Shown piece after piece: positions 3,384-21,261 of a DNA stretch of 64,000 nucleotides. The position numbers and the translations under genes were made by a program. A model generated the notes under the pieces. The model was given only the letters and a program-made list of their open reading frames with translations. It did not search any database and was not told the origin of the DNA. The DNA is from an uncultured Chthonomonadaceae bacterium. Lineage in GTDB: Bacteria > Armatimonadota > Chthonomonadetes > Chthonomonadales > Chthonomonadaceae. The stretch is taken from NCBI GenBank assembly GCA_963835065.1, contig CAWIEK010000057.1, forward strand, positions 90,024 through 154,023, given 5' to 3'. Within the stretch, counting starts at the first letter, position 1. Every line of letters begins with the position of its first letter.

Positions 3384-3806
3384 TCAGACAGACCAATCTT
3401 CCACTTTCAAGCCGGGTACTCTCTGGAAGTCGGACAGATTACGGGTCAACAGAACGGCATCATTGGCAAGCGCGATAGCGGCAATCTGCAAATCTTTTGT
3501 GCCAACGCGAAGACGTGACTGCCGCAAGCGTTCGTAGATGGCAGCGGCGTTCTCGTCATAATCCAGAATAGGAATGCGGCGAAACCTTTCCACATGACTC
3601 CGCAATTTCGCATACGCTTCAATCTGCTTTGAGGGCGTATTTGCTCGCGCGACATAAGCCAGCCAGCCGCGCATTTGTTCTTCATACGTGATAATGCTAA
3701 CGGCAACGTCCTCTTGCGGCAATGCGGCCAGACGCCTGCCGAGATTGAAAGCCTCGATGGTATCCAAATCCAGTATGCTGAGATGGTCGGTATCCAGAAC
3801 GCGCAT
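3384..3806 (-). CDS. vapC: PIN-domain VapC toxin
   Basis: VLDTDHLS...ITYEEQMRG...DLQIAAIALANDAVLLTRNLSDF PIN motifs. TGATG overlap with upstream gene. Confidence 0.92.
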   Translation of the reverse strand: MRVLDTDHLSILDLDTIEAFNLGRRLAALPQEDVAVSIITYEEQMRGWLAYVARANTPSKQIEAYAKLRSHVERFRRIPILDYDENAAAIYERLRQSRLRVGTKDLQIAAIALANDAVLLTRNLSDFQRVPGLKVEDWSV

Positions 3807-4021
3807 CAGGAGCCAGTTTCCTCGTCTTCTACCTGCTGCGATTGCCGCCACTCGCGCCCTAATTGCATGGCTTCGACGTACGCCGGATCGTTCTTGAACG
3901 TGCCGCGTATTTCTTCCCACCAGGGTTTTTTAACAGGCGCGGCATCCGCGCGTTGCCGCTTCAACGCTTCCACTTCCGCTTCCAATCGCGTCAGACGTTC
4001 TTCTATTTCGGTGACTGCCAT
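3806..4021 (-). CDS. Putative VapB-like antitoxin
   Basis: 71 aa, coiled-coil N-terminus, PWWEEIRGTF motif, translationally coupled to the PIN gene, GGAGG RBS and TGGTATAAT promoter upstream. Confidence 0.82.
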   Translation of the reverse strand: MAVTEIEERLTRLEAEVEALKRQRADAAPVKKPWWEEIRGTFKNDPAYVEAMQLGREWRQSQQVEDEETGS

Positions 4022-4236
4022 AAAGGAAACCTCCTCCCTAAATTGCTCTGCACAGCCAGATTATACCACAGCCCCACTCTCACGCCATGCGTTTGCGGCG
4101 TATCTAGGCGCCTATCGCGTCAGGCCGGGCGTTTCCTCCTGAATCCACCCGGCAGGAAAGCGCAAGCATCCTGCGAACGCCCTCCCAAGCTTGTCAGGAG
4201 AGGATCGAGGCAAAAGCAAAGGATGAAGGATGAGGG

Positions 4237-4390
4237 TATGTAGAGACAGCGTCGAAATCTTGGCAATGCAGCGCTTCCAGCCCAGTGTCTCGTTGTGTCA
4301 AATTGTAAGTAGAGGCGTCGTGACCTCAGAGGCGTCAGGGCGAACGGGAAGAGTTTACAGGCATCTTCTTGCACCTCCCTTCTGTGTTAG
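4237..4390. repeat. Dispersed ~150-bp element, copy 1 (inverted relative to copy at ~21020-21171)
   Basis: Reverse complement aligns block by block with 21020-21171: gaagggaggtgcaa, atgcctgta, tgaggtcacgacgcctct, gacacaa, gctggaagcgctgcattgccaa, atttcgacg, ctctacata. Confidence 0.88.
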
Positions 4391-4678
4391 GGTTTTAGGT
4401 TGTTAGGTTGAGAGTTGAGAGTTGATAGAAACTACGAACGTTCTACGGCCCACCACCTGGCTGATTAGTAGACGTTTGTATCTAGTAGACAGGAGGAGTG
4501 GGGCGATAGTTTCGGTTTTTTAGCGCTGTACGGCTTTTTTGCTGTCTTTTTGCTGGATTGTGGCTGTGGGAAGAATCGGGAGAGGGCGCTTGCTTCGGTT
4601 CGTGCCTCTATCCCTTCCCGGTTACAGCTCCTGAAATCATTCGCACATTATCGTAACGTTTGCGAATTGCCACAAAAA

Positions 4679-4716
4679 CCGCGAAGTCTTGCCGCCATAG
4701 CAGCAGGACTTCGCGG
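4679..4716 (-). terminator. Probable intrinsic terminator of the Kelch/Ig gene (hairpin copy B)
   Basis: GC-rich stem followed by a T-run on the minus strand, ~50 bp after the stop at 4769. Confidence 0.6.
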
Positions 4717-4768
4717 ATAGGATGCCTTGAACTGTAGGGTCCCTGTCTTGGAAGATGATTCGCGCGGG

Positions 4769-7700
4769 TTAGCGGCTGCCCTGTCCGGCCAGAACCCGCG
4801 TGGCGTAGGTGATGGGCTTGCCGGTGTCGCTGTTGGTGAAATCCAGCGTCACCGTCACGCTTGCGCCTGCCGCCATATCGCCCGCCTGTATGGTGAGGTA
4901 CGGACTGCCTGCCGGTGTGGTCGCGCTCGTGACGCCGGTTTTGTTGAACAGCGCGGCATTGCTGCTCAGGCCATCCAGCACCAGCGAAACCGGACCGGCA
5001 ATGGCGGAACTGCCCGTGTTCTTGACCGTGACGCGTCTGCGCGAAACGCCCGGTGGCGCGGTTGAAGCGGAAGGCGCTGCGCGTGACGCTGACCTGCGAA
5101 GAAACGTCTGTAGCGATGTTGGGAAGTTGCGTGACGGTATCCGGCTGCGAGTGCGCGTTTTCCAGGTTGAAGGTGTTGTCCCGCGCCTGACTGTAAAAGG
5201 CATACGTGTGCCCGCCCACGCCCGTAAACGTCGCGCTCGTGTCCGTCGTATTCGTCAGCCAGGGCGTGTACGCGCCGCCGTTGTCCGAAACATAGATGGT
5301 GAAGTCCCGCAATCCCGAACCTACATCCTGCCCCTTCCACGACACAGGGAAGTTCAGCGCGTTCTGCACCCCCGCCAGTGGGTTTACCTGACTGCTCGGC
5401 TTGTCGTTGTCAATGGTATTGAACCAGATGGGTGTGAGCATGGCGGCATTCGCATCGAACACGATGGAAGCCTGATCGCGGACGATGGTTCCGGTTTTCA
5501 GGTTCTTGCGCGGCATGACGGTGAACAGCATACTGCCTTCCTGCCCCGGATCAAGGAAGCCGTTGGGATCGTCGGGAGCGAGCGGCAGACCAGTAGCCGG
5601 ATTGATGGAGGTAAACGTCCACGCCAGTAGGCCGTTGTCAAGGTTCAGCTTCGCATTGACATGCACCAGCAGATTCTTCGTCGGGCGCAGGTCTACGTCG
5701 GCGTCGTACTCCCGAACGCCCGCAATGGGGTTGATATGATCTTCGGGCGTGACGGTCTGATTGCCGATAGTGATGGTTCCCAAACTTAGCGTACTCAGGT
5801 CCGCGCCGGGCAAGTCCAGTTGATCCGTGACTTTGATCACCTGCGCCGCCGCTGTCGCTTCCGGCTTATTGGCGAAGAAGACGGTATACGGCATAGGCTG
5901 TGAGCCTGATACCCACTGCGGAGCGCCGAACCCTATCGTTCCAGCGATGTCGTTTGGATCACCGGATGTGATATTCTCTCCAAAAAGATGAGCTAACGCT
6001 TCGCAAGCGAGATCAATGAGGTAATCTTGCACCTTGCTTTTGACCCAATCCTTGGGATTGAGTTCTAGAAGAGCAACAACACACAAAACGTGAACTGCTG
6101 GTAAGGCTGGTATCAATGCAGGGAACGTGATGCCAACCGCAACATCTATGGCGAGACAGGCTTCGTATGCCTCTGGTATGCCAGCTAAGGTTTCGACTTG
6201 CTCAACTACGAACTTGATCCATTCACAAGCCAGTTTAAAATCGAAAGGAGTTGACGGGCCAGGTGGCACAGGTGGATTAACATAGGTTGAGTTACTTATG
6301 TTTACCTGGAAAGTGGCAGTTTGAGAATATCCGGGAACGGTCACTGTTCCAGTTGCCTGACCAGCATTTGACCAGTTCAAGTTGATGGTAGTTCCCTGTG
6401 AGTTGGTCATCAAGGTTGGCTGCAAGTGTTCATTTAATGTCACCGTTGTTACGGTTCCATCGCTGCTAGTGACTTCGTATTGACCTAACCTACTGACTCG
6501 GCCACCAACCATAACTCCGAAGTAGTCTACTGTATTACCTGACTTGGTTCTAGTTCTGATAATACGTCGCTCAGTAAGGTCTCCTATGTATATCACTCCC
6601 CCTACCAACTCCTGATTTATCCAGGCATTGACCTGAAACAGATTGTGAGCGTACCGTGGATCATCAGGTGATTTCACACGTAGCGAGATAGTTTGGGAAC
6701 TGCCTGCTGGTACAGAAGCAAGTTGAACTCCGATAGCCGTGCTGTTCCCGCCCGTGAAGGTGTCACTGGCTTTCGCGTCTATCAATTGCCACTCGAAGTA
6801 GTTAGGGAACTGGATACGGATGTCTGCGGTGCTGGCGTCCACGTTGCCTGAGTTCTGCACTTGCACGTTGTACGTTGTCCATGCGCCGCCGCGAATCTGG
6901 CTACGTCCAATTACCTGCGTTTGCAGCAACGGTTGTTTGAGGTCTTCGACGGTGAACTGTTGGGGCAGGGTGATGACTGTGCCGTCGGGGTTGGTGATGA
7001 CGACATAGCGTGGGCCTAGCGTTGCGCCAGTCAGATCGAACGTGGTTTGTATACGCGAAGAGCCTTTGAAGTTGGTAAAAATGAACGTCTTGGTGTTCGT
7101 GCCTTGAATGTCCGGCTGTTTGTCGGCAGTCAATTTGACGGATGCGCCCTCCTGAACGCCGTTGAGGAGTATGGTGGCTGTCACACTGCCACCTTTGCCA
7201 CCATGATCGGGGAAGATGTTGGTAGCCGCGATGTGGAATGTGTCGAACTCTGGCCTTTAGTGAAGAGGCGTCTCCCGCCTCATCCGTCGCGAAAGCGAAC
7301 AGACGCCCATCACCTATCGACACAACGGGCATGTAATAACTTGGTTTGGGCAGGGCAGGGGCAGAAGCCCATCGGGAAGTTACAGGGTCGTAAGCATCTA
7401 CTTCGGTGAACGAGGCACTATAATAGTATCTGCCACCAATGACATAGATCAAACCGTCCTGTCCGGTAACGACTGCCGATTGATTGCGCGGATTGGGCAA
7501 TGAGGGAAGCGTTGTCCAGGTATTAGCAACAGGATCATAAGCAGCAAAACCTCCAGAGACGCCGAATCCTGCGTAGATTTTCCCGTCTGGCCCTGCCGCG
7601 ATAGTGATTGGATCTCCCATATAGGGCGCAGGCATTCGTGTTATCCACGTTTTTGCTTTTACATCATAGGCCAATACCGTATTAGACGGGTTCCCCTGTG

Positions 7701-8193
7701 GACGTCCACCGATTGAATAGATTAGCCCATCCGAACCGACTGCAGTGGCGTGGGAGGTCTCATATAAAATTGGCTGCGGGAGCGACGTAACTGTAGTCCA
7801 GGTGTCGGTCACCGTATTGTAGGCTTCGACAGTCGCTACTATATTACCCGAACTGTCAACCCCACCAATGGCATAAATCAAGCCATCCGGGCCAGCTACC
7901 ACACTCAGACCGACGCGGGACGTGGGGAGTGGAGTACCCTTCGTCCAGATGTTCTTTGCCGGGTCATAGATGTCCACCGGACTCACGGTGTCATAATAGT
8001 CAGGATGGAATTGTCCCCCAACGACATAGATGCGACCATCAGGGCCGACAGCGGCTCCGAAGCCTGCACGCGGTGTCGGCATGACGGTTGGCTGCGTCCA
8101 GCCCGCCTGGGCGAAAGATCGAGATGGCACACAGGTCAGCAAGCAGACCAGAAGTACGAGGATAGAAAGTAGCTGGCATAAAGTGCGGTTCAT
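4769..8193 (-). CDS. Large secreted protein: signal peptide, Kelch beta-propeller, Ig/CARDB-like domains, low-GC variable core, DPND-type domain, FN3-like and C-terminal domain; two 1-bp frameshifts (~7255, ~5032)
   Basis: Three overlapping ORFs (6901-8193, 4608-7184, 4769-5203) join into one protein. Kelch repeats GPDGRIYVVGG/GPDGLIYAIGG. Junctions read ...SLK|PEFDTFHIAATNIFPDHGG and ...RFAQT|VTVKNTG. Confidence 0.82.
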
Positions 8194-8312
8194 CCTACAA
8201 GTCTCCCTTCAACAATAGTACAGAGATAACCATCACGAGCAAGGCATCAGCCCGAAAAGACGCGCAGGTAAACGCCTGACAGACTGGACCACTGAGTTCA
8301 AGTTGGCTAAGA

Positions 8313-9947
8313 TTAGCCTTGTAAATGCTGGGCCGTTCCCACGAGCCAGAGAGTGCCGTCATTGCTGAAGGTGACGGCGTGGGGCGTCACGTCGGCAGGG
8401 AGTGGGATGCGCTGCTGCAATTTGCCGTCCGCCGCGTACACGGCAATATCGCGGCTTGTATTGCAGGGAATATAGAACCGTTCCTCTTGCGCATGGAAGG
8501 CGAACGGGCCATGATATGCGTCCTCCGCCCGCCAGCAACGCAGGAACTCGCCTTCGGCATCGTAAATCTGCATCATCGGCTCTTCCGGTTTCTCCCGACT
8601 GTTGCTACAACGCAACGCAGCGAGTTCTCCGCCGGGAAGCGATTGAAGGCCGGGAAAGTAGGTATCCATCGGCAGTTGCGCGAACGTCCGCCGCAGTTTC
8701 CCCTCGCGTGTATACAGGCCGATAGAACCACCCCGGGTGCTGTAGTGCGCCAGGTACAGACGCTCCTTTGCCGCCAATGCGATGCAGGTACAGCATTGCA
8801 GAATCAAGGGCTGGACGTGCCCGCCGCCGTTAGTGAATCGTTGCAGCGCATTCCCCGATGTCATCAGCAGCCTGCCCGAAGCATCGAACGCCATGCCTTT
8901 GCCATCGCTAAGCGCGGCGAGGGTGGAACGTCCGCCATAAAAGACGCGCTGCTCCGCGCCGTCCGGCATAAATTCAATGACTTCCTGCTGATTTAGCCCT
9001 TCCCGTATGGCTCGCTTATGCACCACATACACCCGACCTGGGGTAAAGTCCTGACGCCGCGCTGCGGGCGGCGCAATCGCAAGCCCGGCGGGATAGCGCA
9101 GCCGCCCCGGCCCGACGATCTGCCGCGCCCGATACACCTTTCCCGCCTCCGGTTCCAGGCAATACAATACGCCGGAAGACGGAGACGGGTTTGCCGCATA
9201 GCCCAACGGCACGGAAGCCGCGTTGGTTGCCAGCATCAACATCATGCCGAAGGATGCCAGTTCCTGCCACTGCGCTATGTCTGACAGGTTTTCCAGGCTG
9301 TGCGCTGAAATCTGGCAGTCCAGGGGCGAATAGTCACGCGCAAAACAGCGCGCCGTTTCATTTACAAACTTCATCACGTCCAGGGGTAAATGGCCCATTG
9401 CAATCGCGACGGCCACAGCCTCCTGCGGACTCTGCGTGTTCAGGCGCGTTTGGATGCTTTTCAGAATGTTGTTGATGTTGGCGGGCGCGCAGCCGCGCTG
9501 CATCGCAATTTGCGCGGGCGTTTTGCCCTGCGCGAAAAGAACCAAAATTTCAATCTGCGTTTCGGTCAGCCGCTTTTTGCCATCCTCGGTCACGGCTTCC
9601 TTACGCCGATGGCGCTGTTCGGGAAACAGATTGCCGAACAAGACTTGCAGGACTTCGCCGTTTCCCAACAAAGACGGCAGACGGTGCAGCATTTCGGCGC
9701 GGCGCGGGTCTTCGTCCAGCGTTTGCCGAATGTCGGTAACAATCTTGCGCAGCCAATCGAATTCTGCCAGAGCGGGCGCGCTGAAGTCGTTTTCCGGCAC
9801 AGCGTAGGTTCCGGCTTCTGCCTCACCTTCCGCAACAAGCGCTTCCCCGGCCAGATACAGCGCGGAAGTCATCTGCGCTTCAGCGGCGTAAGGATGGGCA
9901 GAAGGCGGGTCAGGTGATTGTGAAGAAGCCTTGTCCGGTTCGCCCAT
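8313..9947 (-). CDS. LuxR-type HTH regulator fused to C-terminal NHL-like beta-propeller
   Basis: AGGAAGG RBS before ATG 9947. LTETQIEILVLFAQGKTPAQIA..RG......NNILKSIQTRLN LuxR HTH. Repeats such as YPAGLAI, GMAFDASGRLL, PHAVTFSNDGTLW. Confidence 0.78.
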   Translation of the reverse strand: MGEPDKASSQSPDPPSAHPYAAEAQMTSALYLAGEALVAEGEAEAGTYAVPENDFSAPALAEFDWLRKIVTDIRQTLDEDPRRAEMLHRLPSLLGNGEVLQVLFGNLFPEQRHRRKEAVTEDGKKRLTETQIEILVLFAQGKTPAQIAMQRGCAPANINNILKSIQTRLNTQSPQEAVAVAIAMGHLPLDVMKFVNETARCFARDYSPLDCQISAHSLENLSDIAQWQELASFGMMLMLATNAASVPLGYAANPSPSSGVLYCLEPEAGKVYRARQIVGPGRLRYPAGLAIAPPAARRQDFTPGRVYVVHKRAIREGLNQQEVIEFMPDGAEQRVFYGGRSTLAALSDGKGMAFDASGRLLMTSGNALQRFTNGGGHVQPLILQCCTCIALAAKERLYLAHYSTRGGSIGLYTREGKLRRTFAQLPMDTYFPGLQSLPGGELAALRCSNSREKPEEPMMQIYDAEGEFLRCWRAEDAYHGPFAFHAQEERFYIPCNTSRDIAVYAADGKLQQRIPLPADVTPHAVTFSNDGTLWLVGTAQHLQG

Positions 9948-10080
9948 AAAATCCCTTCCTGCCGAAGTAAAATGCTCAGTGGGTAACGTGGAGAAGTATA
10001 ACACAAAATGGGAAAATGTTTTGGTTGTCAATTGCAACCATTCTGGCCGGGATTTTGGAGCGGAAGAGGGGGAAGGAAGT

Positions 10081-10152
10081 GATGAATGATGAGTGATGAG
10101 TGCTGAATGAACTGCATTTTGTTCATCATTCATCATTCCGCGTTCAGCATTT
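10081..10152. repeat. GATGAAT/ATTCATC heptamer palindromic element
   Basis: Shares arms and the core gcattttgttcatcattcatca with 59393-59470. Confidence 0.8.
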
Positions 10153-10580
10153 CCTTCTGTTCCCTTGCTCACCGACAGTCCGGCATCGTGGAGGCACAAG
10201 TTGCGATGTTCTTCAACAAAGGCAAGCTGTTCGGATGTAAGAGAAGCAGACGCAGCAAGGCGGGCAAGAAGAGTGGCGGCGGAACGGAAGTCACGGAGTT
10301 GGCAGGCTTGCTGCGCTTGTTGGTACAGGGGATGGGCTTGCACAACAACAAGGGCGTTTTGTTGCGATGTGGGAGGAACAAGCGCGGCGGGATGTAGGCG
10401 CGGCACGGCGGCAGACGCCCGCTTGGACGCCAACGCGGCGGAAGGAGGCGCGTGGGAGCAGCCCGTCAGCAGGCACAGGCCGCAACAAAGCAAAGGAGAA
10501 CGAACACTACGCCATACGAACATCAGCAACCGCGCCTTTCCGAGATCAACCGGAAACACTTTGCCCAGGGCAAAGCGCAA
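10153..10580 (-). pseudogene. Truncated lipoprotein-like gene (lipobox, helical domain) ending at the heptamer element
   Basis: LCLLTGC lipobox and helical segment HPLYQQAQQACQLRDFRSAATLL. The frame then reads into repeat-derived sequence. Confidence 0.5.
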
Positions 10581-10854
10581 ACGTCAACAAACAACGTCAC
10601 AGGCAAACGGCAAACGCAATACAGCAAGGTAAAAATGACGGATTAGAACCGAAACATTTAGAACGATGCAGACGCATCCGACTAAATTGTGGGAAATCGG
10701 GAAACAGGAACAGCGTCGCCGCAAGTTTGATGCAGACACGCCTTTAGAATGATTTTCTTTCCGTTTTATGTCATTCAATGTCAGTAAACAGCGAACCGCC
10801 AATCACTAACCACCAACCACCTATTTCTTCCTGTCTGATTATTCCCGGATAAAA

Positions 10855-10888
10855 ATAACCGCCGCAGGCAATTGCCTGCGGCGGTTAT
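10855..10888. terminator. Perfect palindrome downstream of manC-pmm
   Basis: ataaccgccgcaggcaattgcctgcggcggttat, T-rich on the minus side. Confidence 0.65.
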
Positions 10889-10943
10889 ATGCTTCCTATC
10901 TTGGTCTGCGCCTATCAACTATCAACCACCGACTATCAACTCC

Positions 10944-13487
10944 TCATCCTCGCAAATGCTCCACTTTCTCCACATACCGGCAGAGCAGTTGGTTGGCGGT
11001 GTCGGGGTTATCGGCTTCGGCGTATATGTGGAAGAACGGCTCGGAAGCGTCCGGCAGCACGAGCGCCCAGTTGTGATTGCTCTGGAAGAACTTGATGCCG
11101 TCTATCAGTTCGACGTGTTCGCCGTTGTGACCGTTGTTGCTGTCGGCTTCTTTGGTCAGGACGCGCATGATGCGCCCCTTCATCTCCCACGGACAGCGCA
11201 CATTCGCCCGCACTACATGCGCAAGGGGCAGTTCCGAAGACAGTTCCGAAAGGCGCAGGTCGCTCACGGTCAGCATTTCCAGCAATTTGCCGAACGCGAA
11301 CATGGCGTCGTAACTGGGCTGGAACTCCGAAAAGATAAACCCGCCATTGTCATCCCCGGCGAAATCCACGCGCGCCGGCTGACTTGAACTGCCGGAACAC
11401 ATTTCCATCAGGTTGCGCGCGTCGGTTTTCGTGCGCTGCACGGTTGCCCCGTGCAGTTCCGCCAGCGATTCGATCATGCGCGGCGCGGTCACGGGCACGG
11501 CGATGCGGGCGCGCTCTTTGGTGCGCGCGACCAGGACCGCCATGATTGCCAGCAAATTGTTGTGGTCTATCACTTTGCCGTATTCATCAATCAGGGTCAT
11601 GCGTTCGCCGTCCGCCTCGAACAACACGCCCATATCGGCATGAAGGCTTTGCACGATCTGCGACAGATTGGGCAGCAGCGCGGCGCGGGCTTCGGGCGTT
11701 TTCGGCGTTTTGTTCACGTCCGCGTAAGCGTTCAGCGCGATGAGGTCAATGTCCATGCGCCCCAGCATCGTCGGGTACACGCTGCCCAGCCGCCCGAACG
11801 CGAAATCCGCCACCACTTTCAATTGGCGATTTTTTACGACATCGGCCTTGACATGGCGGTAGAAATCTTCGCCGTATTGTTCTACGCTGCGGCTGGAAAA
11901 TTGCAGTTCTCCCACCTGATCGGCGTCCACGCGGCGGAAATCTTCGCGGAAGAAAATGGTTTCCACCTTGCGCTCGGCGTTTTTGGACAGATAAATGCCA
12001 TGCTCGTCAAAGAACTCAATGACCAGCATCTTGGGATCGTTGGGCGCGAGCCGGATGTGAACGCCGCCTGTCGCCTGCGTCCCCAAAATTCCCAGACGCG
12101 CGACGGGCAGGGGCATGGAGCGCATATCCACGACATTGACGCCCACGGACAGCAGGCCGGAAATCATCGCCCGCTTCATCATGCGCGCGACCGGTCCCGA
12201 ATCGCGGTTGGTCACGACGGTTGCGCCTTTTTTGAGATAGCCGCCAAAGCTCGCGCCCAATTTGCAGGCGAAATCCGGCGTCATTTCGATGTTGGCGATG
12301 CCCATCACGCTGTTGTTGCGGAACAGCGACCCGGCCCACTTCTGTCCCCAGATCAGCGACATCGTGACCGTACTGCCCGCCTCGATGATTTTATCCGGCC
12401 ACAGTTTAATCTGAGTGCGGATGGTGGAATCGTCTTCGATGCGGCAGCGCGCCCCAATGACCGCGCCTTCCTGCACGTCGCAGTTGGCCTTGATGGTGGC
12501 ATACGAGCAGACCGTACACGCGCTTAACTGCGTGTCCACGCCCACGTACACGTTATCCCAAATTACGCTGCGATACAAACGCGCCTTTTCCTCGATGATG
12601 CAGTTGTCGCCGATAACGCTGTAGGGTCCCACAGTCGCTTCGGCTTTGATTTTGCAGTTGCGCCCAATAACGACGGGCGCGACGATATGGGCGCTGGGGT
12701 CAATGTCGCTGCCTTCGCCCACCCACACGCCGTTGCCCCGGCCTTCCGAGGAGCCGCTGCCGATACGGATGCGGGTTCTGCCGTCCAAAACCGTATACTG
12801 CGCTTCGCGGTACTGCTGCAAGTTGCCCACGTCGCACCAGTAATCCTCCGCCATCACATAGCCGAACATGGGCTTTTCTTCGGCCAGTATCTGCGGGAAA
12901 ATATCGTGGCTCCAGTCGTAATTCTTGCCCATCTCCATATAATCGAAAATGGACGGCTCCAGAATATACATGCCCGTGTTGACCGTATCGGAAAACACTT
13001 CGCCCCACGAAGGCTTTTCCAGAAAGCGGCGGATGTGGCCTTCGTCGTCGGTAATGACAACGCCGAACTCCAGGGGGTTCGGCACATGGGAAAGCACGAT
13101 GGTCGCCACGCTGTTCTTCTCGCGGTGGTAGGCAATGGCTTTGTCCAGGTCAATGTCGGTGAGCGCGTCGCCGCTGATGATGAGGAAGGTATCATCGCGC
13201 AGGTGTTCTTCCGCCTGCTTTACGCTGCCCGCCGTTCCCAAAGGCGTATCTTCCACCGAATAGATAAAATTGACGCCCCACTCGGCCCCATCGCCGAAAT
13301 AGCCTTCGATCTCATCCGCCAGATAGTGAAGCGTGACAACGATGTCGGTTATGTCGTGTTCCTTGAGGAGCAGGACGATATGCTCCATAATCGGAATGTT
13401 GAGCGCGGGCGCAAGCGGCTTGGGGCGCTGGGAAGTCAAGGGCCGCAGGCGCGTACCCTCCCCGCCGGCCATGATGACGGCTTTCAT
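10944..13487 (-). CDS. Bifunctional mannose-1-phosphate guanylyltransferase / phosphomannomutase-like protein
   Basis: MKAVIMAGGEGTRLRPLT..PKP nucleotidyltransferase motif, hexapeptide left-handed beta-helix, C-terminal PGM/PMM-like domains. Confidence 0.93.
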   Translation of the reverse strand: MKAVIMAGGEGTRLRPLTSQRPKPLAPALNIPIMEHIVLLLKEHDITDIVVTLHYLADEIEGYFGDGAEWGVNFIYSVEDTPLGTAGSVKQAEEHLRDDTFLIISGDALTDIDLDKAIAYHREKNSVATIVLSHVPNPLEFGVVITDDEGHIRRFLEKPSWGEVFSDTVNTGMYILEPSIFDYMEMGKNYDWSHDIFPQILAEEKPMFGYVMAEDYWCDVGNLQQYREAQYTVLDGRTRIRIGSGSSEGRGNGVWVGEGSDIDPSAHIVAPVVIGRNCKIKAEATVGPYSVIGDNCIIEEKARLYRSVIWDNVYVGVDTQLSACTVCSYATIKANCDVQEGAVIGARCRIEDDSTIRTQIKLWPDKIIEAGSTVTMSLIWGQKWAGSLFRNNSVMGIANIEMTPDFACKLGASFGGYLKKGATVVTNRDSGPVARMMKRAMISGLLSVGVNVVDMRSMPLPVARLGILGTQATGGVHIRLAPNDPKMLVIEFFDEHGIYLSKNAERKVETIFFREDFRRVDADQVGELQFSSRSVEQYGEDFYRHVKADVVKNRQLKVVADFAFGRLGSVYPTMLGRMDIDLIALNAYADVNKTPKTPEARAALLPNLSQIVQSLHADMGVLFEADGERMTLIDEYGKVIDHNNLLAIMAVLVARTKERARIAVPVTAPRMIESLAELHGATVQRTKTDARNLMEMCSGSSSQPARVDFAGDDNGGFIFSEFQPSYDAMFAFGKLLEMLTVSDLRLSELSSELPLAHVVRANVRCPWEMKGRIMRVLTKEADSNNGHNGEHVELIDGIKFFQSNHNWALVLPDASEPFFHIYAEADNPDTANQLLCRYVEKVEHLRG

Positions 13488-13884
13488 ACGAATCCCCCAT
13501 TATCCGCGATACGCTTCCAAAGCATGGTGCGTATCGCCAGTGTGCGATGTTTGATTTTGGCTATTCGGCCCACAGCGCGCCGTTTGCCCATGCGAGACTA
13601 CAGCGAGACGGCCTCCGTGCCGTACAAAACAGTCTCATTTCTGTAAGAAAAAGGCGGCGCTATGCCGTTGAATTTGAATTCCGTGTTAATGCTAATACGG
13701 CGACAGTATAAATTTTGCAGCAATGTTGTGGCGGAAATGGCGGAAATCGCATTGGATATTGCTTCGAAAATTTTCTCTACGCGCATTTTTCACAGAGCGG
13801 TATTAAGAGCGCATGGTATCCGACATATTCTGTCAATCCTGCTTGATGGCATGGCTGCCCGGCATCCTTTTGTTACTCGGCTTA

Positions 13885-14340
13885 TTAGTCGGCAGGGGAA
13901 GGCTCGGCGCGCAGGCAGCGGTCCGCAACGCCCAGGCACAGCAGGACGCCGCCAATCAATCCGACCACTACGCCCGGAAGCAGGGCAAAACGTGTCAGGG
14001 CGATAATCACGCAGGCAAACGCGCCTGCGCCCCCGACGGCGGCCAGCGCAATCCGATTTCTGGCCGTCGCATCCCACAGCAGCGTACACGCGCACAGCGC
14101 GGCGCAGATCGTCAGCGGCAAGGCGCAGCCCGCGCCAAAGCCATTGTGCTGTACGGTCAGGCTTTCCACATGCACGGCCCCAACCGGGAAAGTCGGAAAC
14201 TGCTCCGGGCGCTGCACCTTCCAGGTCAGAAACAGGCTGGAAATAACCGTTACCATGCCAAGCAGGATGGCCGCCTCGGCCCGCGTCAAAAAGCGGCGCA
14301 TCGCAGGCGGCGCAAAGGGTTTTGGTTGTGGCCCGGACAT
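13885..14340 (-). CDS. Small membrane protein
   Basis: About four hydrophobic segments. GGAGA RBS before ATG 14340. Confidence 0.65.
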   Translation of the reverse strand: MSGPQPKPFAPPAMRRFLTRAEAAILLGMVTVISSLFLTWKVQRPEQFPTFPVGAVHVESLTVQHNGFGAGCALPLTICAALCACTLLWDATARNRIALAAVGGAGAFACVIIALTRFALLPGVVVGLIGGVLLCLGVADRCLRAEPSPAD

Positions 14341-14705
14341 AGCTAAATTCTCCCCGAAAACGTTCCCGCAATCCTCATTTACTTCTCGCCCCGTGAAATC
14401 AATTTCTCTCCACGCGCACATGAGCAGAGAACAGGCCGCGCGATTGGAAACCAAAACTACATTCGACACCGTATGCGGCAACTCCTTGTTCGTAAAATGA
14501 AAATTTCTCATCTCAGGCCGCGCATTTTGCGGGAGTTGGTATTTTGCATGATTTAGCCCTATTTTCTGGTAAAAAGGAGAAAAATGTCTGTAATTTAGAG
14601 GTGGAAGCGCGTGAGAAGGCTTGCGTTTGGCGCAAGTCTATGCTATCATAGCCGCATTGTAACCCTGTCTCAAGCAAACGCAAACTCACCGGCAAGGAGA
14701 ACCTC

Positions 14706-15065
14706 ATGGCGTATTCGCACAAAAGCAACAAATCCGGCACGACCTACTACTTACATTCTAAAGAAACCGAGTCGCGCGGCGGTAAGCGCACCCTGTTTTT
14801 CTTCAGCAAAGAAGTGAAAGAGGCGAAAGACGGCACGCTCCCCCTCGACGCGGTTCCCGAAGGCTACACCGTGACGGAAAGCGCGCAAACCGGCCTGCCG
14901 CTGCTCAAGAAGGCGGACAAAGGCGAAGCGGCGGAAGCGCCTGCCGCAGCGGAAAAGCCCGCCAAAGCAGACAAGCCCGCCAAAGCGCCTGCGGCGGCGA
15001 AAGCGGACAAACCGGCAAAAACGGAAGCGGCTGCAAAAACCGATAAGAGCAAAGCGAAAAAATGA
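14706..15065 (+). CDS. Small basic protein with histone-H1-like Ala/Lys/Pro tail
   Basis: AAGGAG RBS. Globular GTTYYLHSK...RGGK.TLFFFSK...PEGY.V.E...TGLP.LKK core, followed by (A/D)KPAKA repeats. Confidence 0.8.
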   Translation: MAYSHKSNKSGTTYYLHSKETESRGGKRTLFFFSKEVKEAKDGTLPLDAVPEGYTVTESAQTGLPLLKKADKGEAAEAPAAAEKPAKADKPAKAPAAAKADKPAKTEAAAKTDKSKAKK

Positions 15066-15316
15066 GCGCGGCCAATGACGGCAAGCGTCAGGGCGCAGAT
15101 GTTGTGGTGCAGGGGTATTGTGTCCACTGCCGCAGCCGGCGTCAGATGGTGGGCGCAATTCAAGTCTGCAACAAGCGCGGCGGACGCGACCTGAAGGGAC
15201 TTTGCAGCATTTGCGGCAAATCCATGTACCGTCTGGGCGGTTGGGATTCCGTTGTCGCCGCCGCGCAGGAAACCGACAAAAACAGCCGCACTCAGAACAC
15301 TCCACCAGAAGAGTAG
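15062..15316 (+). CDS. DUF5679-like zinc-ribbon protein
   Basis: YCVHCR...M...KGLCSICGKSMYRLG. ATGA overlap with upstream gene. Confidence 0.78.
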   Translation: MSAANDGKRQGADVVVQGYCVHCRSRRQMVGAIQVCNKRGGRDLKGLCSICGKSMYRLGGWDSVVAAAQETDKNSRTQNTPPEE

Positions 15317-15334
15317 TACAGCAAATGTTTTGAA

Positions 15335-15377
15335 AAATGCCTGCCTCCTTCCATTATCGGAAGAAGGCAGGCATTTT
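15335..15377. terminator. Bidirectional terminator-like hairpin
   Basis: aaaatgcctgcc...ggcaggcatttt between convergent genes. Confidence 0.65.
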
Positions 15378-15496
15378 CATAACTCACTTAAAATCGTTTG
15401 ACAATGCCACGAACATGGCCCATAATTCCGCATGATTGCCGCGTCACCGCCACTGCGTTTCCTGGACACTAACGTCTGTATTGACATTGTTCTGGC

Positions 15497-15832
15497 TCAG
15501 GCGACGGCGAATTCTCCCACCTGGCGCAACGGCAAAGAGTAAAATCCCAGCACGATACGGTCTTTCGGTACGCCTTCCGCCACCAGTTCGGAAGCGATGC
15601 CTTCTTCCGTATTGTCGGTCAACACCCATATTTTGCCGTCCCGTATCTCCAGATAGGCAAGCAGCCGCGCGTCATAGCGATCTCCGGCAAAACTGACGTT
15701 TTGTAGTGTGTAGCGGTCGTGCGGCGCGTCCTGTACGCTGACGATTTTCCAGTCACTCGGCATACGCGGCAGCTTTTCCCATTCAGCAAACACGCGCCCA
15801 ATCGCTTCGCGCAAAGTGTCTACGATTTCCAT
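15497..15832 (-). CDS. xisI: XisI family protein
   Basis: DRYTL...LEIRDGKIWVLTDNTEEGIASELVAEGVPKDRIVLGF is the canonical XisI C-terminus. Confidence 0.9.
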   Translation of the reverse strand: MEIVDTLREAIGRVFAEWEKLPRMPSDWKIVSVQDAPHDRYTLQNVSFAGDRYDARLLAYLEIRDGKIWVLTDNTEEGIASELVAEGVPKDRIVLGFYSLPLRQVGEFAVA

Positions 15833-16178
15833 GCTACAATCTCCTCGCGTTCCACTGAAAAATAAAAACTGAAAAATAAAACAGGCGGTTTATATGCTCC
15901 TTCAGCATCAACTGTCCTAATTCCTCGCTTAAAATGGAATCGCGCACTTCTTCGGAAACAGCAAGATAAAGTTCTCGATCCGGTTCTACCTGTGACAGAA
16001 TACTTTTGTACATGAGGAACTGGCCCATAGCCTGCTGCAAGTCAGCGACGGGCGAGGCGCCGCCAAAGGTTTTAATCTCTACTGCAATTCGCTTCGTATC
16101 GCGCTCTGCCCCGATCAACACCCTTTCCGCTCCTACATCAACCGAAAGTGTTCGCTTGCCAACGACAAAGAAGGAATG
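15820..16178 (-). pseudogene. xisH: XisH family gene, 5'-truncated and frameshifted by a 14-bp tandem duplication
   Basis: VDVGAERVLIGAE....IAVEIKTF.G.SPV.DL..A.GQ...Y...L...EPDRELYLAV. ACTGAAAAATAAAA occurs twice (15854-15881); removing one copy restores EREEIVAWKS*. Confidence 0.85.
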
Positions 16179-16454
16179 CCGTATGCTAAAGTATTATATC
16201 TGACCCTTCAACGATGAAGTGACAGATACTATTTTCTAACGACGCCTCTAATATACGATTGAGGACGTACTTCTTTAAGGCAAATGGTTGTTGAGCCAAG
16301 CGTAGAAAGTCAAACATCACTATCCCTAGCTCCTTACCATTAGACATAGGGTTCTGTCCGCCAATTTCGCGTTGTATGCGTTTTAGCAGAAGCGCGGCTT
16401 CTTTACCTGACACATCAATGCGAAAGATTAAGCCACCGGGGAATGGCTGCTCTT

Positions 16455-17112
16455 GCTGGTGAAAACCGCAGGCGTCATACGAGTACAGGATACTCCCGCC
16501 CATGAGTGTGCAGCTCAGGCTTTTGCGGTGTCCATCCGGGTAGTAATCGTATTCCAGCGTGAACACATAGGGCATCGCGGCGTATTTGGTTGTCGCCGTC
16601 AGCACGTTGCCCAGGCAGTCGTAGGTATACGACAGGGTAAGCCTGCTGTCCTGCGCGCTTTTCACGCGGCCAAACGCATCGTATTCGTAATGTACGGACG
16701 GCAGCGCGTTTTGCCCGTACTGCACGTCGGTCACGCGGCTGTCATCGGGGGCGCGGGTGTACCACGTATCGCGGTCCTGCTCGTCCAGCGTGTGCGCGAC
16801 ATTGCCTTCGGGATCGTAATCGGCCTGCAGCCTCTGGCTGTTCTTGTTGATGACCTGCCGCAGATTGCCCACATTGTCGTAAACATGCTGAAACGTTCTG
16901 CCGTTGCCGTCTGTCAGCTGGCGCAGGCGGCTCAGGCCATCGTACTGGAGCCGCGCCTGCTCGCCGCTGCCCTGCTGCATCGTGGACGCGCCCTCGCCGT
17001 TCAAACTCACGCCTTCCTGCCGTACCGCCATTCCGTTGCCCGCGTACAACACCGTGCCAACCGCCGGCCTGCCGGGATAAGCATACGCACTCACAACATA
17101 GCTGCGCCCCAT
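16455..17112 (-). pseudogene. RHS/YD-repeat gene fragment
   Basis: YDGLSRL, YDNVGNL, YDPEGNV, YDAFGRV, YDCLGNV repeats. No RHS start or core end. Fused in frame to low-GC sequence at 16186-16450. Confidence 0.8.
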
Positions 17113-17149
17113 GTTAAAATCGCAACCTTTTCCATGCCAGCCCTGTCTT

Positions 17150-17980
17150 ATGAGCAACAAGGAAATAGTAGGCCGAATTCATCGAGCAAGCAAGCAAAAA
17201 TTTTAGAGGAATTTTCAGGCAATGATAGAAGACGCGAGGCACATCTTTACCGATGCCTATTTTCGATGGCAAGATGGACTAATAGTAGCAAGCCACTTCC
17301 GGCAAGTGACTCGAACAAGTGTGCCATTGGGAAGAGAAGCAGCATTCCAACATGCAATGAACATTGCACAAAACCATCCTCAGATGGTCAGCATGTTTCA
17401 AAATCAGAACCTTTCTCAAAATGCAGAGATGCAAAATATCTTTGCGAACAAGGCGGCTGATGTTTTTGCAGAAAATGTAATTACCGCTATCAATGCTGCC
17501 TCACTGTTGTTCATTTACGCCACATTGGACAGCGTACTGAGCGACCATCTGCATTGTTCGGCCTTGATAGCCTGTCACGACTGGAAATCAGTGATCGTAA
17601 ACGACAAATTTACTGCCGAGCAATTCGCTGGCCTATCGGACGATGAACTCGCAAGGAAGGTGCATAAATGCCGGTTAAACCTCAAAGAACGAAGCGGATT
17701 GTCGGCAAAGGCTGAGGCTCTCTGCAAAATCTGCAATCCGTCTGTTGACCTTATGAGCAAAGAAGGTATTATTTACGACAGCAAGCGTTTATATCAACTG
17801 ACTCAAGCCCGCAATGAGATTGCGCATGGGGATGGGTTACGGAAACCTATTCCTGATTTCGAGGATGAGTTGCGCTTTCTGATCTGATGCGGCAACTATT
17901 TCTTCAAAGCGACCCAAGCAAAATATAACCTGTCGCTAGATTGGCAATACTACATGAACAAACACTCGGCATCAGGATAG
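17150..17980 (+). pseudogene. Low-GC HEPN-like protein (core ORF 17222-17887) with in-frame TAG and TGA stops
   Basis: ARNEIAHGDG RX4H motif. Upstream ATG 17150 and downstream CGNYFFK...SASG* are in frame across single stops. Confidence 0.55.
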
Positions 17981-18334
17981 CTCCGCAAGGGCTTGTTGAA
18001 GCTGTTCTTCGGTTTCATCGCCCGGCCACTTGCCGGAAACCATGTCCGCCAGCGTTTTACCCGGCGGCGGCGTTCTTCTCGGCTGATAGCGTTCCATTGC
18101 GCGTTGCTGTGCCTGCGCAAGTTGTTCCGGCGTACGGTGCGTCATTTCGTAAATGGCGCGTTCCAATGGCGTTTGCTCCTGCATTTCTGCCTCCTGCGCA
18201 TCTATTGTTTGCGTTGTCTCAATATGTACTTGTACCACATCGCCAGGATGCAATCCTAATTCAGCAACCATTTCTTTCGGAACAGTAAGCGAACCATCCC
18301 CCGTAAGTGGGGCGGCAAAAGCAATAGCCGTCAT
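17972..18334 (-). CDS. AbrB/MazE-like DNA-binding antitoxin, no adjacent toxin
   Basis: GSLTVPKEMVAELGLHPGDVVQV AbrB signature, C-terminal GKWPGDET motif. Confidence 0.75.
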   Translation of the reverse strand: MTAIAFAAPLTGDGSLTVPKEMVAELGLHPGDVVQVHIETTQTIDAQEAEMQEQTPLERAIYEMTHRTPEQLAQAQQRAMERYQPRRTPPPGKTLADMVSGKWPGDETEEQLQQALAELS

Positions 18335-18696
18335 GCCTCTTTCCTCCTCAGAACCGAATGTCGTATTGCACAGTATACCATGCCGCAATATGTGATGACA
18401 AAAAGTAAAAGCGCAGGTTTCCTTGTTCGAAAGAACCTGCGCTTTATACATAGAGGATAGAGTCTATACTTCTGGCGCGATGCTTTTGCAGGCGGGGGCG
18501 GCTAGTATTACAACGACGGGTTTGGGGTAAAATGTAAAATCCCTATTCGGCATGGCGGGAGAGGCTGCAACCCTGACCGCCTTTTTCATTCACACCCAAT
18601 CACACCATAAAAGCATGTATTGGCTCATGTTTTTCAGAAAATAGTTTGAAGGTGTCCATACTTTTTGGTATACTGTCTGGCAGGGATGATAAAGAT

Positions 18697-18924
18697 ATGC
18701 TCACAGTTCAGCAGGTGGCAGAAATGCTTGGAGTGAACCAGAACTCTGTTTACCTCGCTGCCAGTGAGGGACCTTTGCCCTACTCAGAAATGTTGGGGCG
18801 CAAAGTCATTGTCCGTGCTGATGCAGAGGCGTACCAAGAACGTACCCGCGTCAGTGGCGAGAAGCCGAAGGGCAGGCCGAAGGGAAGTGCGAACCGGAAG
18901 AAGATAGACGCAGGAGAAAGTTAA
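18697..18924 (+). CDS. Excisionase-like HTH_17 protein with AT-hook tail
   Basis: MLTVQQVAEMLGVNQNSVY...G.LP; C-terminal KGRPKG. Confidence 0.8.
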   Translation: MLTVQQVAEMLGVNQNSVYLAASEGPLPYSEMLGRKVIVRADAEAYQERTRVSGEKPKGRPKGSANRKKIDAGES

Positions 18925-18927
18925 ATA

Positions 18928-19896
18928 ATGGCTTCTTTCACATTCCAAATAAAATTAATGGTTTCGCGCAGTATTGCTATTGTTAGTGAACAGCAGGTTT
19001 TAGAACTTGCTAGACCTAGTGAAAACACGGTTATTACTCTTGAATCTCTCATTGATAAGTCTATACAACAAGCGTCTTTCCTACGTGTTAAAGGTACAGG
19101 TTACCACTCAGAGGAGGCAGCCTTTGAAGCAGGGCAGACTTGGCTTCGAGTTTTGATGCTGACTTTGGCAAGAGTACGCATGGGCACAGACTTCAGCAGG
19201 GCTAAGCCATCGGCGGCTTTTATACCCGCCAATTATCCTTCCGCATCGTATGAAGGTGTAAAAGAAATACCAGAGAGACAATTAGTAGATACCACATATG
19301 GAATTGTAGTATACGATGCTGACAAACTTACCCGTTTTGCCGGGACTGGAAGTGCAATCCATGCAATCCATTCCGTACTAGGTGAGAATCTGGTTCGACT
19401 AGCCAACAACATCAAGGAGAGGTTTCCCACAATAAATCTTAAAGAGGAAATTGCCTTTGAACTTTTCAATGCTTCCTTTTTTGAGGTTTCAACACGCACA
19501 CGATTCTTATTGCTTGTTATGGCAATTGAGGCACTAATTGAACTCACGCCGCAAAGCGATCAGGCAATAAAGCATGTCGAATTCCTAATGCTACAAACTA
19601 AGAATTCTCTCACGCTTTCAGCTAGCGAGAAAGCGTCCTTTACTGGCAGTTTACGATATATGCTGAACAAGTCAATTGGTAAAAGAGGCCGTGATTATGT
19701 TGCGCAGCGTCTTGGAGACCGCCAGTATCAAGGTAAACAGGCTGAGAATTTCTTTACATACTGTTATAGTCTGCGTAGCGAACTTGTTCATGAAGGCCAA
19801 ACAGAAGCAGGCATTAATATGAAGGCACTGGTATATATTTTGGAAGGGTTTGTGTCAGACCTGTTATGCGCAAACATCCTAGACATTCCTAAATGA
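18928..19896 (+). CDS. ApeA-like HEPN domain protein (putative defence RNase)
   Basis: RFLLLVMAIEALI and YSLRSELVHEG (E...RX4H) HEPN motifs. AT-rich. Starts 3 bp after the HTH gene. Confidence 0.72.
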   Translation: MASFTFQIKLMVSRSIAIVSEQQVLELARPSENTVITLESLIDKSIQQASFLRVKGTGYHSEEAAFEAGQTWLRVLMLTLARVRMGTDFSRAKPSAAFIPANYPSASYEGVKEIPERQLVDTTYGIVVYDADKLTRFAGTGSAIHAIHSVLGENLVRLANNIKERFPTINLKEEIAFELFNASFFEVSTRTRFLLLVMAIEALIELTPQSDQAIKHVEFLMLQTKNSLTLSASEKASFTGSLRYMLNKSIGKRGRDYVAQRLGDRQYQGKQAENFFTYCYSLRSELVHEGQTEAGINMKALVYILEGFVSDLLCANILDIPK

Positions 19897-20011
19897 CTTA
19901 ACTATAGTGATTGAGAAGAGCCTATTTGACAGTGGCATTGCAAGCCCTTCCCCATCGGCGGGGCTTGCAGCATTTACACCGGGCACACTCAACGCAGGAG
20001 GCAAGACAGCC

Positions 20012-20076
20012 ATGCACACCTTCATTACGGTTCCCGAAGCCGCCGACCTATGGGCTACAGGCCGCGCACAAGTCTT
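20012..20076 (+). pseudogene. Start of a second excisionase-like HTH gene, cut off by the convergent nuclease gene
   Basis: AGGAGG RBS, then MHTFITVPEAADLWATGRAQVF. Confidence 0.4.
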
Positions 20077-20868
20077 TCAGTCTTCCCCACCCTCTTCCAT
20101 GTCGTGAAGCAAACTTCCCTGCTGCCAGACGCCCTTTAGAGGCCGCTCTACGCCTGTTTTAGCAGGACAAACGTTCTTGTACGGGCAAGTCGTGCAACCG
20201 ATTCCCGGCGTAGGCTTCCATGCTTTTTCCTGTTGAATACTCGCACAGGTTGCGTCCACCCACTCTACCGTAGCCTTCAACGTAGCGCGATTCGCGGGAA
20301 AAACCTTTTCCTCTCCATGTCGCAGGTAGTATAGCCTCACGTCCGCCACAGGAAGCCCCAAACCGTGTTCCGCCAAGATTTGGTAAAAGCCCAATTGTCG
20401 CGGATTGAAACCTGTTTCGCCCTCCGGTAGCAATTTGTCCAATTTGTAATCAATAACGCTGTATCGGTTATCGTCGCGCAGGTCAATGCGATCCACAACA
20501 CCGCTGAGGTTGTAGGGGCCAAAAGACAGTCTAATCACTTGTTCATGGTGTGTGGGCAAACGTCTGAGACGGTTCTCGCGTTCCGCAAAGGCGCGTAGAA
20601 TAGTCTCGCTTTCACGATACGGTTGAGAATTACGTACATCCGGCGAACGCGGTAAATCGTAGACGTGCGCCAGGGCGTCGAGTAAACCCTGCTCCTCGAC
20701 CACGCCGTCTTTGCGCCCTCGGACGTAGTAACTGCGAATCGCGGCGTGAATACGCTTTTGGAACGTCAGAGACGTGATCGGAGGCCGGGGCAGGCGCTCG
20801 ATGTAGCCATACCGATATTTGAGCCGGCAGTCGCTGAAGGTTTTAAGTTTTGTATAGGACAAGTTCAT
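20077..20868 (-). CDS. PD-(D/E)XK RecB/AddB/Cas4-like nuclease with four Fe-S cysteines
   Basis: LSYTKL..FSDC.LKY, GVVDRID...VIDYK, QL.FY, CTTCPYKNVC. Confidence 0.88.
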   Translation of the reverse strand: MNLSYTKLKTFSDCRLKYRYGYIERLPRPPITSLTFQKRIHAAIRSYYVRGRKDGVVEEQGLLDALAHVYDLPRSPDVRNSQPYRESETILRAFAERENRLRRLPTHHEQVIRLSFGPYNLSGVVDRIDLRDDNRYSVIDYKLDKLLPEGETGFNPRQLGFYQILAEHGLGLPVADVRLYYLRHGEEKVFPANRATLKATVEWVDATCASIQQEKAWKPTPGIGCTTCPYKNVCPAKTGVERPLKGVWQQGSLLHDMEEGGED

Positions 20869-21019
20869 CAAAAATTAAAAAAACTTTGCACCATGCGAAA
20901 AAAAGAACACTTTCCACCTTCTAAAATGCCTGCGAAGTGTGAATATATCTGCAAATCAGCCAGGCGGCGGGACGGGGGAGAGTTAGAGCGGAGTTCCTAT
21001 CAACGAACAACCTGACAAC

Positions 21020-21171
21020 CTAACCCGGAAGGGAGGTGCAACAAACATGCCTGTACATACGCGGGCGCCGTAACTCTAATGAGGTCACGACGCCTCTGCT
21101 AAAAACTAGACACAATGAGGCGGAGTGCTGGAAGCGCTGCATTGCCAAAATTTCGACGATGCCTCTACATA
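21020..21171. repeat. Dispersed ~150-bp element, copy 2
   Basis: Inverted homolog of 4237-4390. Confidence 0.88.
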
Positions 21172-21261
21172 TTCTTTTATTTTCCATTTAGATGCGGTCG
21201 CCCTGAACGCAGGTTTTCCTGATGCGGAAGGACCTGCGCTCTATGCATTAAAAGGTAAAGA

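Follow-up and report, generated by a model that had tools for sequence, protein, structure and literature searches.

A dispersed Shine-Dalgarno and Pro-stop mini-ORF element of Chthonomonadaceae, tentatively read as a multicopy small RNA gene

What is the element that occurs twice, in inverted orientation, in a 64-kb window (the whole stretch of DNA analysed, 64,000 nucleotides of contig CAWIEK010000057.1) from an uncultured Chthonomonadaceae bacterium? A first-pass annotation described two dispersed, diverged copies, each with a Shine-Dalgarno (SD) sequence, a mini-open reading frame (mini-ORF), a hairpin and the arms of a stem, and the coordinates and sequences are as it gave them. The two copies match each other far above chance (blastn E 4e-33). 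The window has no others, but across the 8.0-Mb source genome (G000) the family numbers 162. Our best explanation, held at a little short of even confidence, is a multicopy small RNA gene in which the mini-ORF would park a ribosome before a conserved module, with part of the family carried as insertion sequence (IS) cargo and the whole evolving in concert.

The blastn count of 162 in G000 (71 contigs, 92% complete) is matched by profile searches with nhmmer, which recovered 159 promoter parts, 158 SD parts and 162 3' parts. All counts take in a few pairs with near-identical flanks that are possible assembly duplicates. Such pairs (G000:C30:36954 and 38046; C20/C8, C37/C25, C1/C28) suggest tandem or assembly duplications. 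Two relatives of the same genus also carry the element, G001 (13 copies) and G002 (at least 47 copies, 47 of the 52 scored candidates, with 46 exact core matches), so that it is present in 3 of 68 genomes of the class. BLAST of 58 other relatives and a covariance model run on 65 genomes (best 52 candidates scored per genome) returned no copy, and 399 other genomes of the phylum gave six single one-mismatch matches against five for a reversed control. In a species-wide collection, all 30 of the matches listed are titled Chthonomonadaceae. One metagenome match (L090) is due to chance, as hairpin, ORF and stem are absent. Viral contigs, plasmids and phage records yielded no copy, no Rfam 15 family reached its gathering threshold, and no description was found among the literature matches listed, mostly main texts of openly readable papers. 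In G000 the copies are about twice as numerous as the transfer RNA and tmRNA calls together (76).

The unit is 250-300 bp long rather than the 150 bp or so first annotated, because a promoter-like region extends upstream. Along the SD strand it comprises an A-rich tract, a promoter box, a second GTCTAC box, a leader of variable length, the SD and the ORF; hairpin H1 begins 7 nt after the stop codon and is joined by a linker to the 66-nt core, behind which 128 of 162 copies have a U-rich tail. The predicted RNA would measure about 160-250 nt. The features of the two window copies are as follows.

4486-4513, minus strand: copy 1, box resembling an extracytoplasmic function (ECF) sigma promoter (GAAAC ... 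GTCTA; predicted function), A-rich tract upstream
4466-4474, minus strand: copy 1, GTCTAC box, the second of the region, 16-21 nt beyond the -10 box
4395-4424, minus strand: copy 1, heptamer tract within the variable leader, a genome-wide repeat type
4372-4381, minus strand: copy 1, Shine-Dalgarno AAGGGAGGTG
4335-4364, minus strand: copy 1, mini-ORF MPVNSSRSP*
4312-4327, minus strand: copy 1, hairpin H1, 7 nt 3' of the stop
4237-4291, minus strand: copy 1, core module with long imperfect stem, invariant AGCGCTGYATTGCCA (4275-4261) and TACATA end
4220-4236, minus strand: copy 1, pyrimidine-rich tail (TCATCCT heptamers)
4596-4620, plus strand: upstream of copy 1, degenerate terminal repeat of the ISAzo13 type (a loose match, with as many as 7 mismatches allowed)
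4148-4171, minus strand: repeat resembling a repetitive extragenic palindrome, downstream of copy 1, from a separate 136-site family
20916-20945, plus strand: copy 2, alternative promoter-like motif (ACCTTCTAAA ... AATA) in place of the ECF-type box
21008-21023, plus strand: copy 2, heptamer-like tract
21029-21038, plus strand: copy 2, Shine-Dalgarno
21047-21073, plus strand: copy 2, mini-ORF MPVHTRAP*
21081-21096, plus strand: copy 2, hairpin H1
21117-21171, plus strand: copy 2, core module, invariant 15-mer at 21133-21147, TACATA end
21187-21205, minus strand: right terminal inverted repeat of an ISAs1-type shell at copy 2, the same repeat as in autonomous ISAs1 of G002

The SD lies 7 and 8 nt from the ATG in the two window copies, within the 7-9 nt first reported. 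Its pairing with the genome's own 16S tail has a median of -15.3 kcal/mol (155 copies) compared with -5.8 kcal/mol for 2,850 genes; the first percentile of gene SDs is -12.7 kcal/mol, and the element SD is thus stronger than 99% of genes. Of 199 copies with ATG, 193 have their stop at a distance divisible by three (152 of 157, 8 of 9 and 33 of 33; three G000 copies whose hairpin was not placed are left out), with ORF lengths of 24, 27, 30, 33 and 48 nt (8-16 codons). Unlike the ORF, the adjacent linker varies by single bases between 52 and 57 nt. In G000 five copies carry a frameshift and two have ATT in place of ATG; an inner stop interrupts the ORF of one G001 copy. Proline is the last residue in 196 of 198 copies, compared with 387 of 4,711 genes called by our own ORF caller (8.2%). 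Residue -2 is Ser (136), Pro (53), Ala (7) or Gln (2), and residue -3 is Arg (179), Leu (12) or His (6). Start codons ATG, GTG, TTG and CTG, stops TGA, TAA and TAG, and synonymous Pro and Arg codons are all used.

The SD and ORF are therefore kept across copies, and the first-pass claim of a conserved frame and Pro-stop stands. The claimed MPV start does not: it is found in MPV-like form in 44 of 162 copies, while 109 have MFH/MSH-like starts, and the N-termini (MFH, MPV, MLCL, MPTRTPRDGL) are wholly unlike. As the frame and Pro-stop are kept, the N-termini vary and the SD is very strong, selection appears to act on loading a ribosome and ending on Pro-stop. Since MPV marks only one subfamily, the mini-ORF looks like a ribosome-parking device rather than a peptide product. 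A micropeptide as the product, for which selection on frame and start would speak, is very improbable: only the last one to three residues are kept in ORFs whose length ranges from 8 to 16 codons, and conservation is far higher in the non-coding core than in the ORF. Occlusion of the SD by the ORF is not an independent signal, because the pairing (above null in 135 of 152 G000 copies and 2 of 12 G001 copies) is also high after synonymous shuffling.

The 15-base sequence AGCGCTGYATTGCCA is exact in all 162 copies collected with the hidden Markov models, and the core shows no deviation at 14 sites compared with 73 deviations at 39 neighbouring low-variation sites, in a family with a median nearest-neighbour identity of 94%. 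In an alignment of 39 diverse sequences from about 200, 96.5% of cells are paired in a 20-pair structure and four pairs show two-sided changes, and the structure scores above both shuffles and slid controls. Further G001 copies carry an A-U to U-A change in H1 and altered outer stem arms. Covariation in the stem thus appears modest. In bacterial selenocysteine insertion (SECIS) recoding elements, a UGA codon precedes the hairpin; this candidate was rejected, as TAA and TAG are common in the relatives and the open frame is not kept past the stop.

Upstream, a box of GAA(C/A)C, 16-17 free bases and (C/T)GTCTA is present in 151 of 162 copies. Both halves are nearly fixed and the spacer sequence is free, with a length of 16-17 in 143 of the 151. 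With a stricter pattern, 136 of 178 matches in the genome fall inside the element. The second GTCTAC box is kept in most copies, 16-21 nt beyond the -10 box; in copy 2 and several copies in the relatives, a different upstream motif replaces the ECF-type box. Promoter activity is predicted from this pattern. We take the box to resemble Bacillus sigma W/M promoters. ECF promoters of Streptomyces sigma E share with it AAC at -35 and TC at -10, according to the part of the source consulted (PMC6767563). Among 67 sigma matches none could be assigned to the box, and the element strand of copy 1 has no sigma-70 promoter and no classic terminator. One copy of the MLCL type is flanked by a primary-like sigma gene on one side and a convergent ECF sigma gene on the other (G000:C46:106443-108691).

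Could the functional RNA instead be read from the opposite strand, as an anti-SD small RNA? That strand reads CACCTCCCTT, and fold z-scores do not separate the strands. This suggestion of the first-pass annotation is nevertheless the most improbable one considered, as frame and Pro-stop conservation, the promoter box and the U-rich tail all run along the SD strand, and G-U-tolerated changes fit that strand too.

Comparison of the copies shows, at the level of sequence, that promoter boxes, SD, frame, Pro-stop and core are under selection, and the parts of a predicted expressed and translated RNA are complete in nearly every copy. Under the small RNA gene reading, an alternative-sigma promoter would drive each copy as a gene of about 160-250 nt, and the very strong SD and 8-16-codon ORF would load one ribosome and hold it at the Pro-stop, where termination is presumably slow. 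In Escherichia coli, a C-terminal Pro slows termination and Pro-Pro-stop is among the strongest cases, in the portion of the study available to us (10.1101/751305). The parked ribosome would probably shield the 3' module from 5'-to-3' decay by RNase J, which is encoded in all three genomes bearing the element; 5' ribosomes or strong-SD roadblocks stabilise downstream RNA in Bacilli, as described in the sections consulted (PMC3997798). The 3' module would be the probable working part, bound by a protein through the invariant loop. The host would gain from high dosage, the family would evolve in concert like a ribosomal RNA (rRNA) gene family, and close copies would be purged by ectopic recombination. 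In this family a Pro-stop mini-ORF and one alternative-sigma promoter are available in about 200 natural alleles. One copy of the 162 converges on the 3' end of an RNase J gene (G000:C53:218943-220715), which may be chance.

A different possibility is that the element is a portable cis-regulatory leader or attenuator, REP2-like or arrest-peptide-like, that controls the next gene. Promoter, SD, ORF, hairpins and U-tail do resemble an attenuator, the R-x-P-stop ending with its prevalent Arg at -3 resembles RxPP, and the gene downstream is on the same strand in 61 of 161 copies. However, 100 of 161 copies (62%) have a convergent downstream gene, at a median distance of 87 nt, where large gaps lead one to expect about 42%. 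The neighbours lack a common family (the largest cluster among 265 neighbour genes has five members), and a diverged subfamily ending LPP-stop lacks the Arg. Together with the observation that 160 of 162 copies overlap no called gene, this makes the element a stand-alone unit in the genomic record, in line with the earlier claim that it is not a gene-specific leader, and the leader reading is improbable.

The earlier suggestion that the element is the end of an IS fares no better. Most copy ends are ragged. Inverted repeats of 19 bp of the ISAs1 type flank 15 of 162 copies on both sides and 13 more, including copy 2, on one side; no left end was found for the shell at copy 2, and neither window copy has both ends. 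A 10-bp target duplication with no or one mismatch accompanies nine of the 15 two-ended copies, and autonomous ISAs1 elements with the same repeat are present in G002 (1,271 and 1,243 bp, NF033564 at 3e-120). The transposase domain PF13808 was not found in G000 (92% complete) or G001. ISAzo13-type ends adjoin 47 copies, and 89 of 162 copies have neither type of end; in control gaps the two types occur in 2 of 600 and 6 of 600. Two autonomous ISAzo13 elements of 1,361 bp with two reading frames are present in G000 (C53:451924-453284 and C41:162053-163413), and MITEs (miniature transposable elements with inverted repeats) of 78-97 bp share their ends and have TWA-like flanks. Only three closed ISAzo13 end pairs surround a copy, without clean 3-bp duplications. 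Because the IS ends lie outside it, the ISAs1 shells have nothing but the terminal repeat in common with the autonomous IS (the interior shows no homology) and ends of two families bound it, the core is, as far as its sequence tells, cargo and not an IS end. The element is an example of cargo captured by two IS families. The first idea of a mobile or structured RNA unit thus holds in that the element is dispersed, partly mobile and RNA-like with a selected SD and ORF, while the stem is only partly supported. An IS110 bridge RNA or seekRNA was rejected, as the IS110 recombinase domain PF02371 has no match in G000 (92% complete; relatives not searched).

Among 41 copies from the relatives, eight have a G000 copy beside the orthologous flank, none of these being among the nine from G001; loci in common with G001 are limited to one or two candidates, ambiguous through paralogues. 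One relative's copy (L038) corresponds to an empty G000 site without target duplication, and for another (L002) the two flanks match separate G000 copies. Where a site is shared, the alleles of each copy are those of its own genome, and 3' alleles are common to different 5' subfamilies. All four allele combinations are present in 27 of the 33 site pairs listed, most with r-squared below 0.1, and diversity drops from 0.40 in the promoter through 0.30 and 0.18 to 0.06 in the core. Allele sharing and near linkage equilibrium therefore indicate frequent gene conversion and crossover among copies, to which recurrent mutation could add.

The same data bear on a selfish element without host benefit, whose parts would be kept for its own spread, for example as the template of a host reverse transcriptase (RT) or as an aid to the transposases. 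Copy numbers of 13, at least 47 and 162, presence or absence at orthologous sites, capture by two IS families that are unrelated, linkage close to equilibrium over 10-60 nt, the diversity gradient and a retron-type RT without adjacent non-coding RNA in all three genomes are consistent with it. However, the same RT occurs in four genomes, from two other genera, in which no copy was detected with the RNA model, no copy adjoins an RT or a Y1 transposase, the promoters are copied too although they lie outside the transcript, and the resident copies are old, as judged from the 94% nearest-neighbour identity, yet intact. We regard this explanation as unlikely. A retron msr-msd was rejected as well: no model match was obtained at the RT loci, and the RT is present in 7 of 68 class genomes compared with 3 of 68 for the element. 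With alignments judged by eye for paired a1/a2 ends and a branching G, RNAalifold gives no conserved end-to-end helix. The RT (L094:1288-2718; G000:C50:52482-53912) lies downstream of a SWIM-BRCT gene that leaves no space for msr-msd, and the upstream gene overlaps the RT start in four of the seven RT-bearing genomes; retron type XIII provides a context for this RT in the part of the survey consulted (PMC7736814).

The copies are evenly spaced along the chromosome. Only 4 of 105 within-contig gaps are shorter than 10 kb, compared with 28.4 (uniform) or 27.1 (intergenic) expected, and none of 2,000 and none of 1,000 simulations gave so few. Five other repeat families of G000 show no such deficit, one of them (136 sites) of comparable power. 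Median gaps are 21 kb between convergent (27), 36 kb between direct (58) and 48 kb between divergent neighbours (20), with a permutation p of 0.0006 for an orientation split chosen after seeing the data, and the deficit extends 15-20 kb upstream and about 10 kb downstream of copies. Such spacing, even and orientation-dependent, is not shared by other repeats of the genome. Purging of close copies by ectopic recombination, with deletion between nearby direct copies, would explain it only in part.

This raises the possibility of a position-dependent cis element, in which nascent ribosome-loaded RNA, or transcription itself, would mark a territory of 30-50 kb so that nearby extras are useless or harmful. 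Both the shortage of short gaps and their dependence on orientation favour it. However, convergent gaps are also below divergent ones in G002 without significance (p 0.11), G001 gets by on 13 copies, the assembly consists of 71 contigs (the last 1.5 kb of contigs contain eight copies, compared with 4.3 expected), and a single control family is of comparable power. There is no link to replication direction either (58 vs 67), though GC skew is weak here. We find this account rather unlikely. The same grade applies to its chromosome-wide form, a lattice of 160 ribosome-loaded RNA genes that an alternative sigma factor would co-activate, with a polar territory of tens of kilobases under the control of each. 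Here the element would have spread by hitch-hiking on unrelated IS ends and been kept uniform by gene conversion, and its role would be self-marking or the local organisation of the chromosome. Should the spacing prove to be functional, this would indicate an undescribed way to organise a bacterial chromosome with RNA genes. In the large G000 contigs, third-position GC skew is weak and flips sign over about 60 kb, consistent with heavy rearrangement.

Several observations weigh against the multicopy small RNA gene that we prefer. Its 13-162 copies lie within one genus, with none found in other genera, which fits a selfish element equally, and gene conversion could leave dead copies looking intact. 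Recombination alone leaves unexplained why divergent neighbours lie further apart than convergent ones. The covariation reflects few independent events in diverged copies, and the structure was drawn from the same alignment. The compensatory pair flagged in the first pass (GAGAC..GTCTC at 4243-4247/4287-4291 versus GAGGC..GCCTC) reads as written but is not typical, because only 30 of 162 G000 copies have T opposite that A; the pair is A-U in these and mismatched in the other 132. The 3' module is no stabler than shuffles (30 sampled copies; z +0.49 sense, -0.49 antisense). The portion of the termination study consulted (10.1101/751305) does not count Ser-Pro-stop, with 136 of 198 the most frequent ending, as a strong staller. 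No partner protein was found for the module, and pairing targets of the invariant loop amount to 19 scattered sites at one or two mismatches, none compelling, with nothing below three mismatches in the rRNA operon region. As no base-pairing target emerged in genes or rRNA operon, the 15-base loop is likely a protein-binding site.

The element resembles several known systems and differs from every family tried in a defining trait. With bacterial MITEs and non-autonomous IS (ISAs1, ISAzo13) it shares the 15 copies within 19-bp repeats, nine with duplication, and the 47 touching ISAzo13 ends. Unlike MITEs, it lacks either end in 89 of 162 copies, its interior is non-homologous to the IS, and it is cargo of two unrelated families, selected in its own right; an ISAs1-derived MITE would thus describe the subset of 15 alone. 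Neisseria REP2 and Borrelia IR-A/IR-B are likewise dispersed, without terminal repeats, and combine promoter, ribosome-binding site, ATG and two stem-loops, but REP2 lies upstream of controlled genes and its ATG runs into them, as far as the consulted part of the review goes (PMC3184786). Here the ORF closes after 8-16 codons and a conserved core follows; the promoter, ribosome-binding site and ATG signatures are present, but a REP2-type portable leader was rejected because 100 of 161 copies face a convergent gene end. The bcr1 repeat of the Bacillus cereus group is similar in being a transcribed intergenic repeat of about 155 bp that shows compensatory changes as well as non-conserved positions. 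It differs in its 5-bp flanking direct repeats and stable cruciform, and no promoter-SD-ORF unit is described for it in the same passages (PMC3184786).

For the mini-ORF, RxPP/RAPP arrest peptides share the R-x-P C-terminus found in 179 of 198 copies (PMC10951233, in part), and termination stalling at Pro-stop is matched by the Pro before the stop in 196 of 198 (10.1101/751305, in part). Unlike these peptides, the element fills the A site with a stop codon rather than Pro-tRNA and has no regulated downstream gene, and 12 copies end LPP; an arrest peptide of the R-x-P-P type was thus rejected for endings that read R-x-P-stop or L-P-P-stop. STAB-SD and stalled-ribosome stabilisers (cryIIIA, ermC, hbs) are comparable in the very strong SD, a likely slow 5' ribosome and an RNase J genome, as far as the consulted sections go (PMC3997798). 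They protect mRNAs, whereas the downstream part of the element is non-coding and repeated 162 times.

Both window copies abut heptamer tracts (4395-4424, 4220-4233 and 21008-21023), as first annotated, but the tract type is genome-wide, with 2,529 period-7 tandem arrays of many different units in G000. We take this load to be reminiscent of the short tandemly repeated repetitive sequences of cyanobacteria. A telomerase-like template for the heptamers was rejected, as the tracts have many units and are mostly distant from copies. A second, group II-like RT (L091:1270-3293; G000:C49, about 681-683 kb) is followed by another ORF that we take, by eye, to be Cas1-like. In the window, a VapC-like PIN toxin gene with a small upstream ORF (3384-4020, minus strand) lies directly downstream of copy 1, and a PD-(D/E)XK-type nuclease gene (20077-20871, minus strand), with weak Cas4/AddB similarity below cut-offs, is divergent from copy 2.

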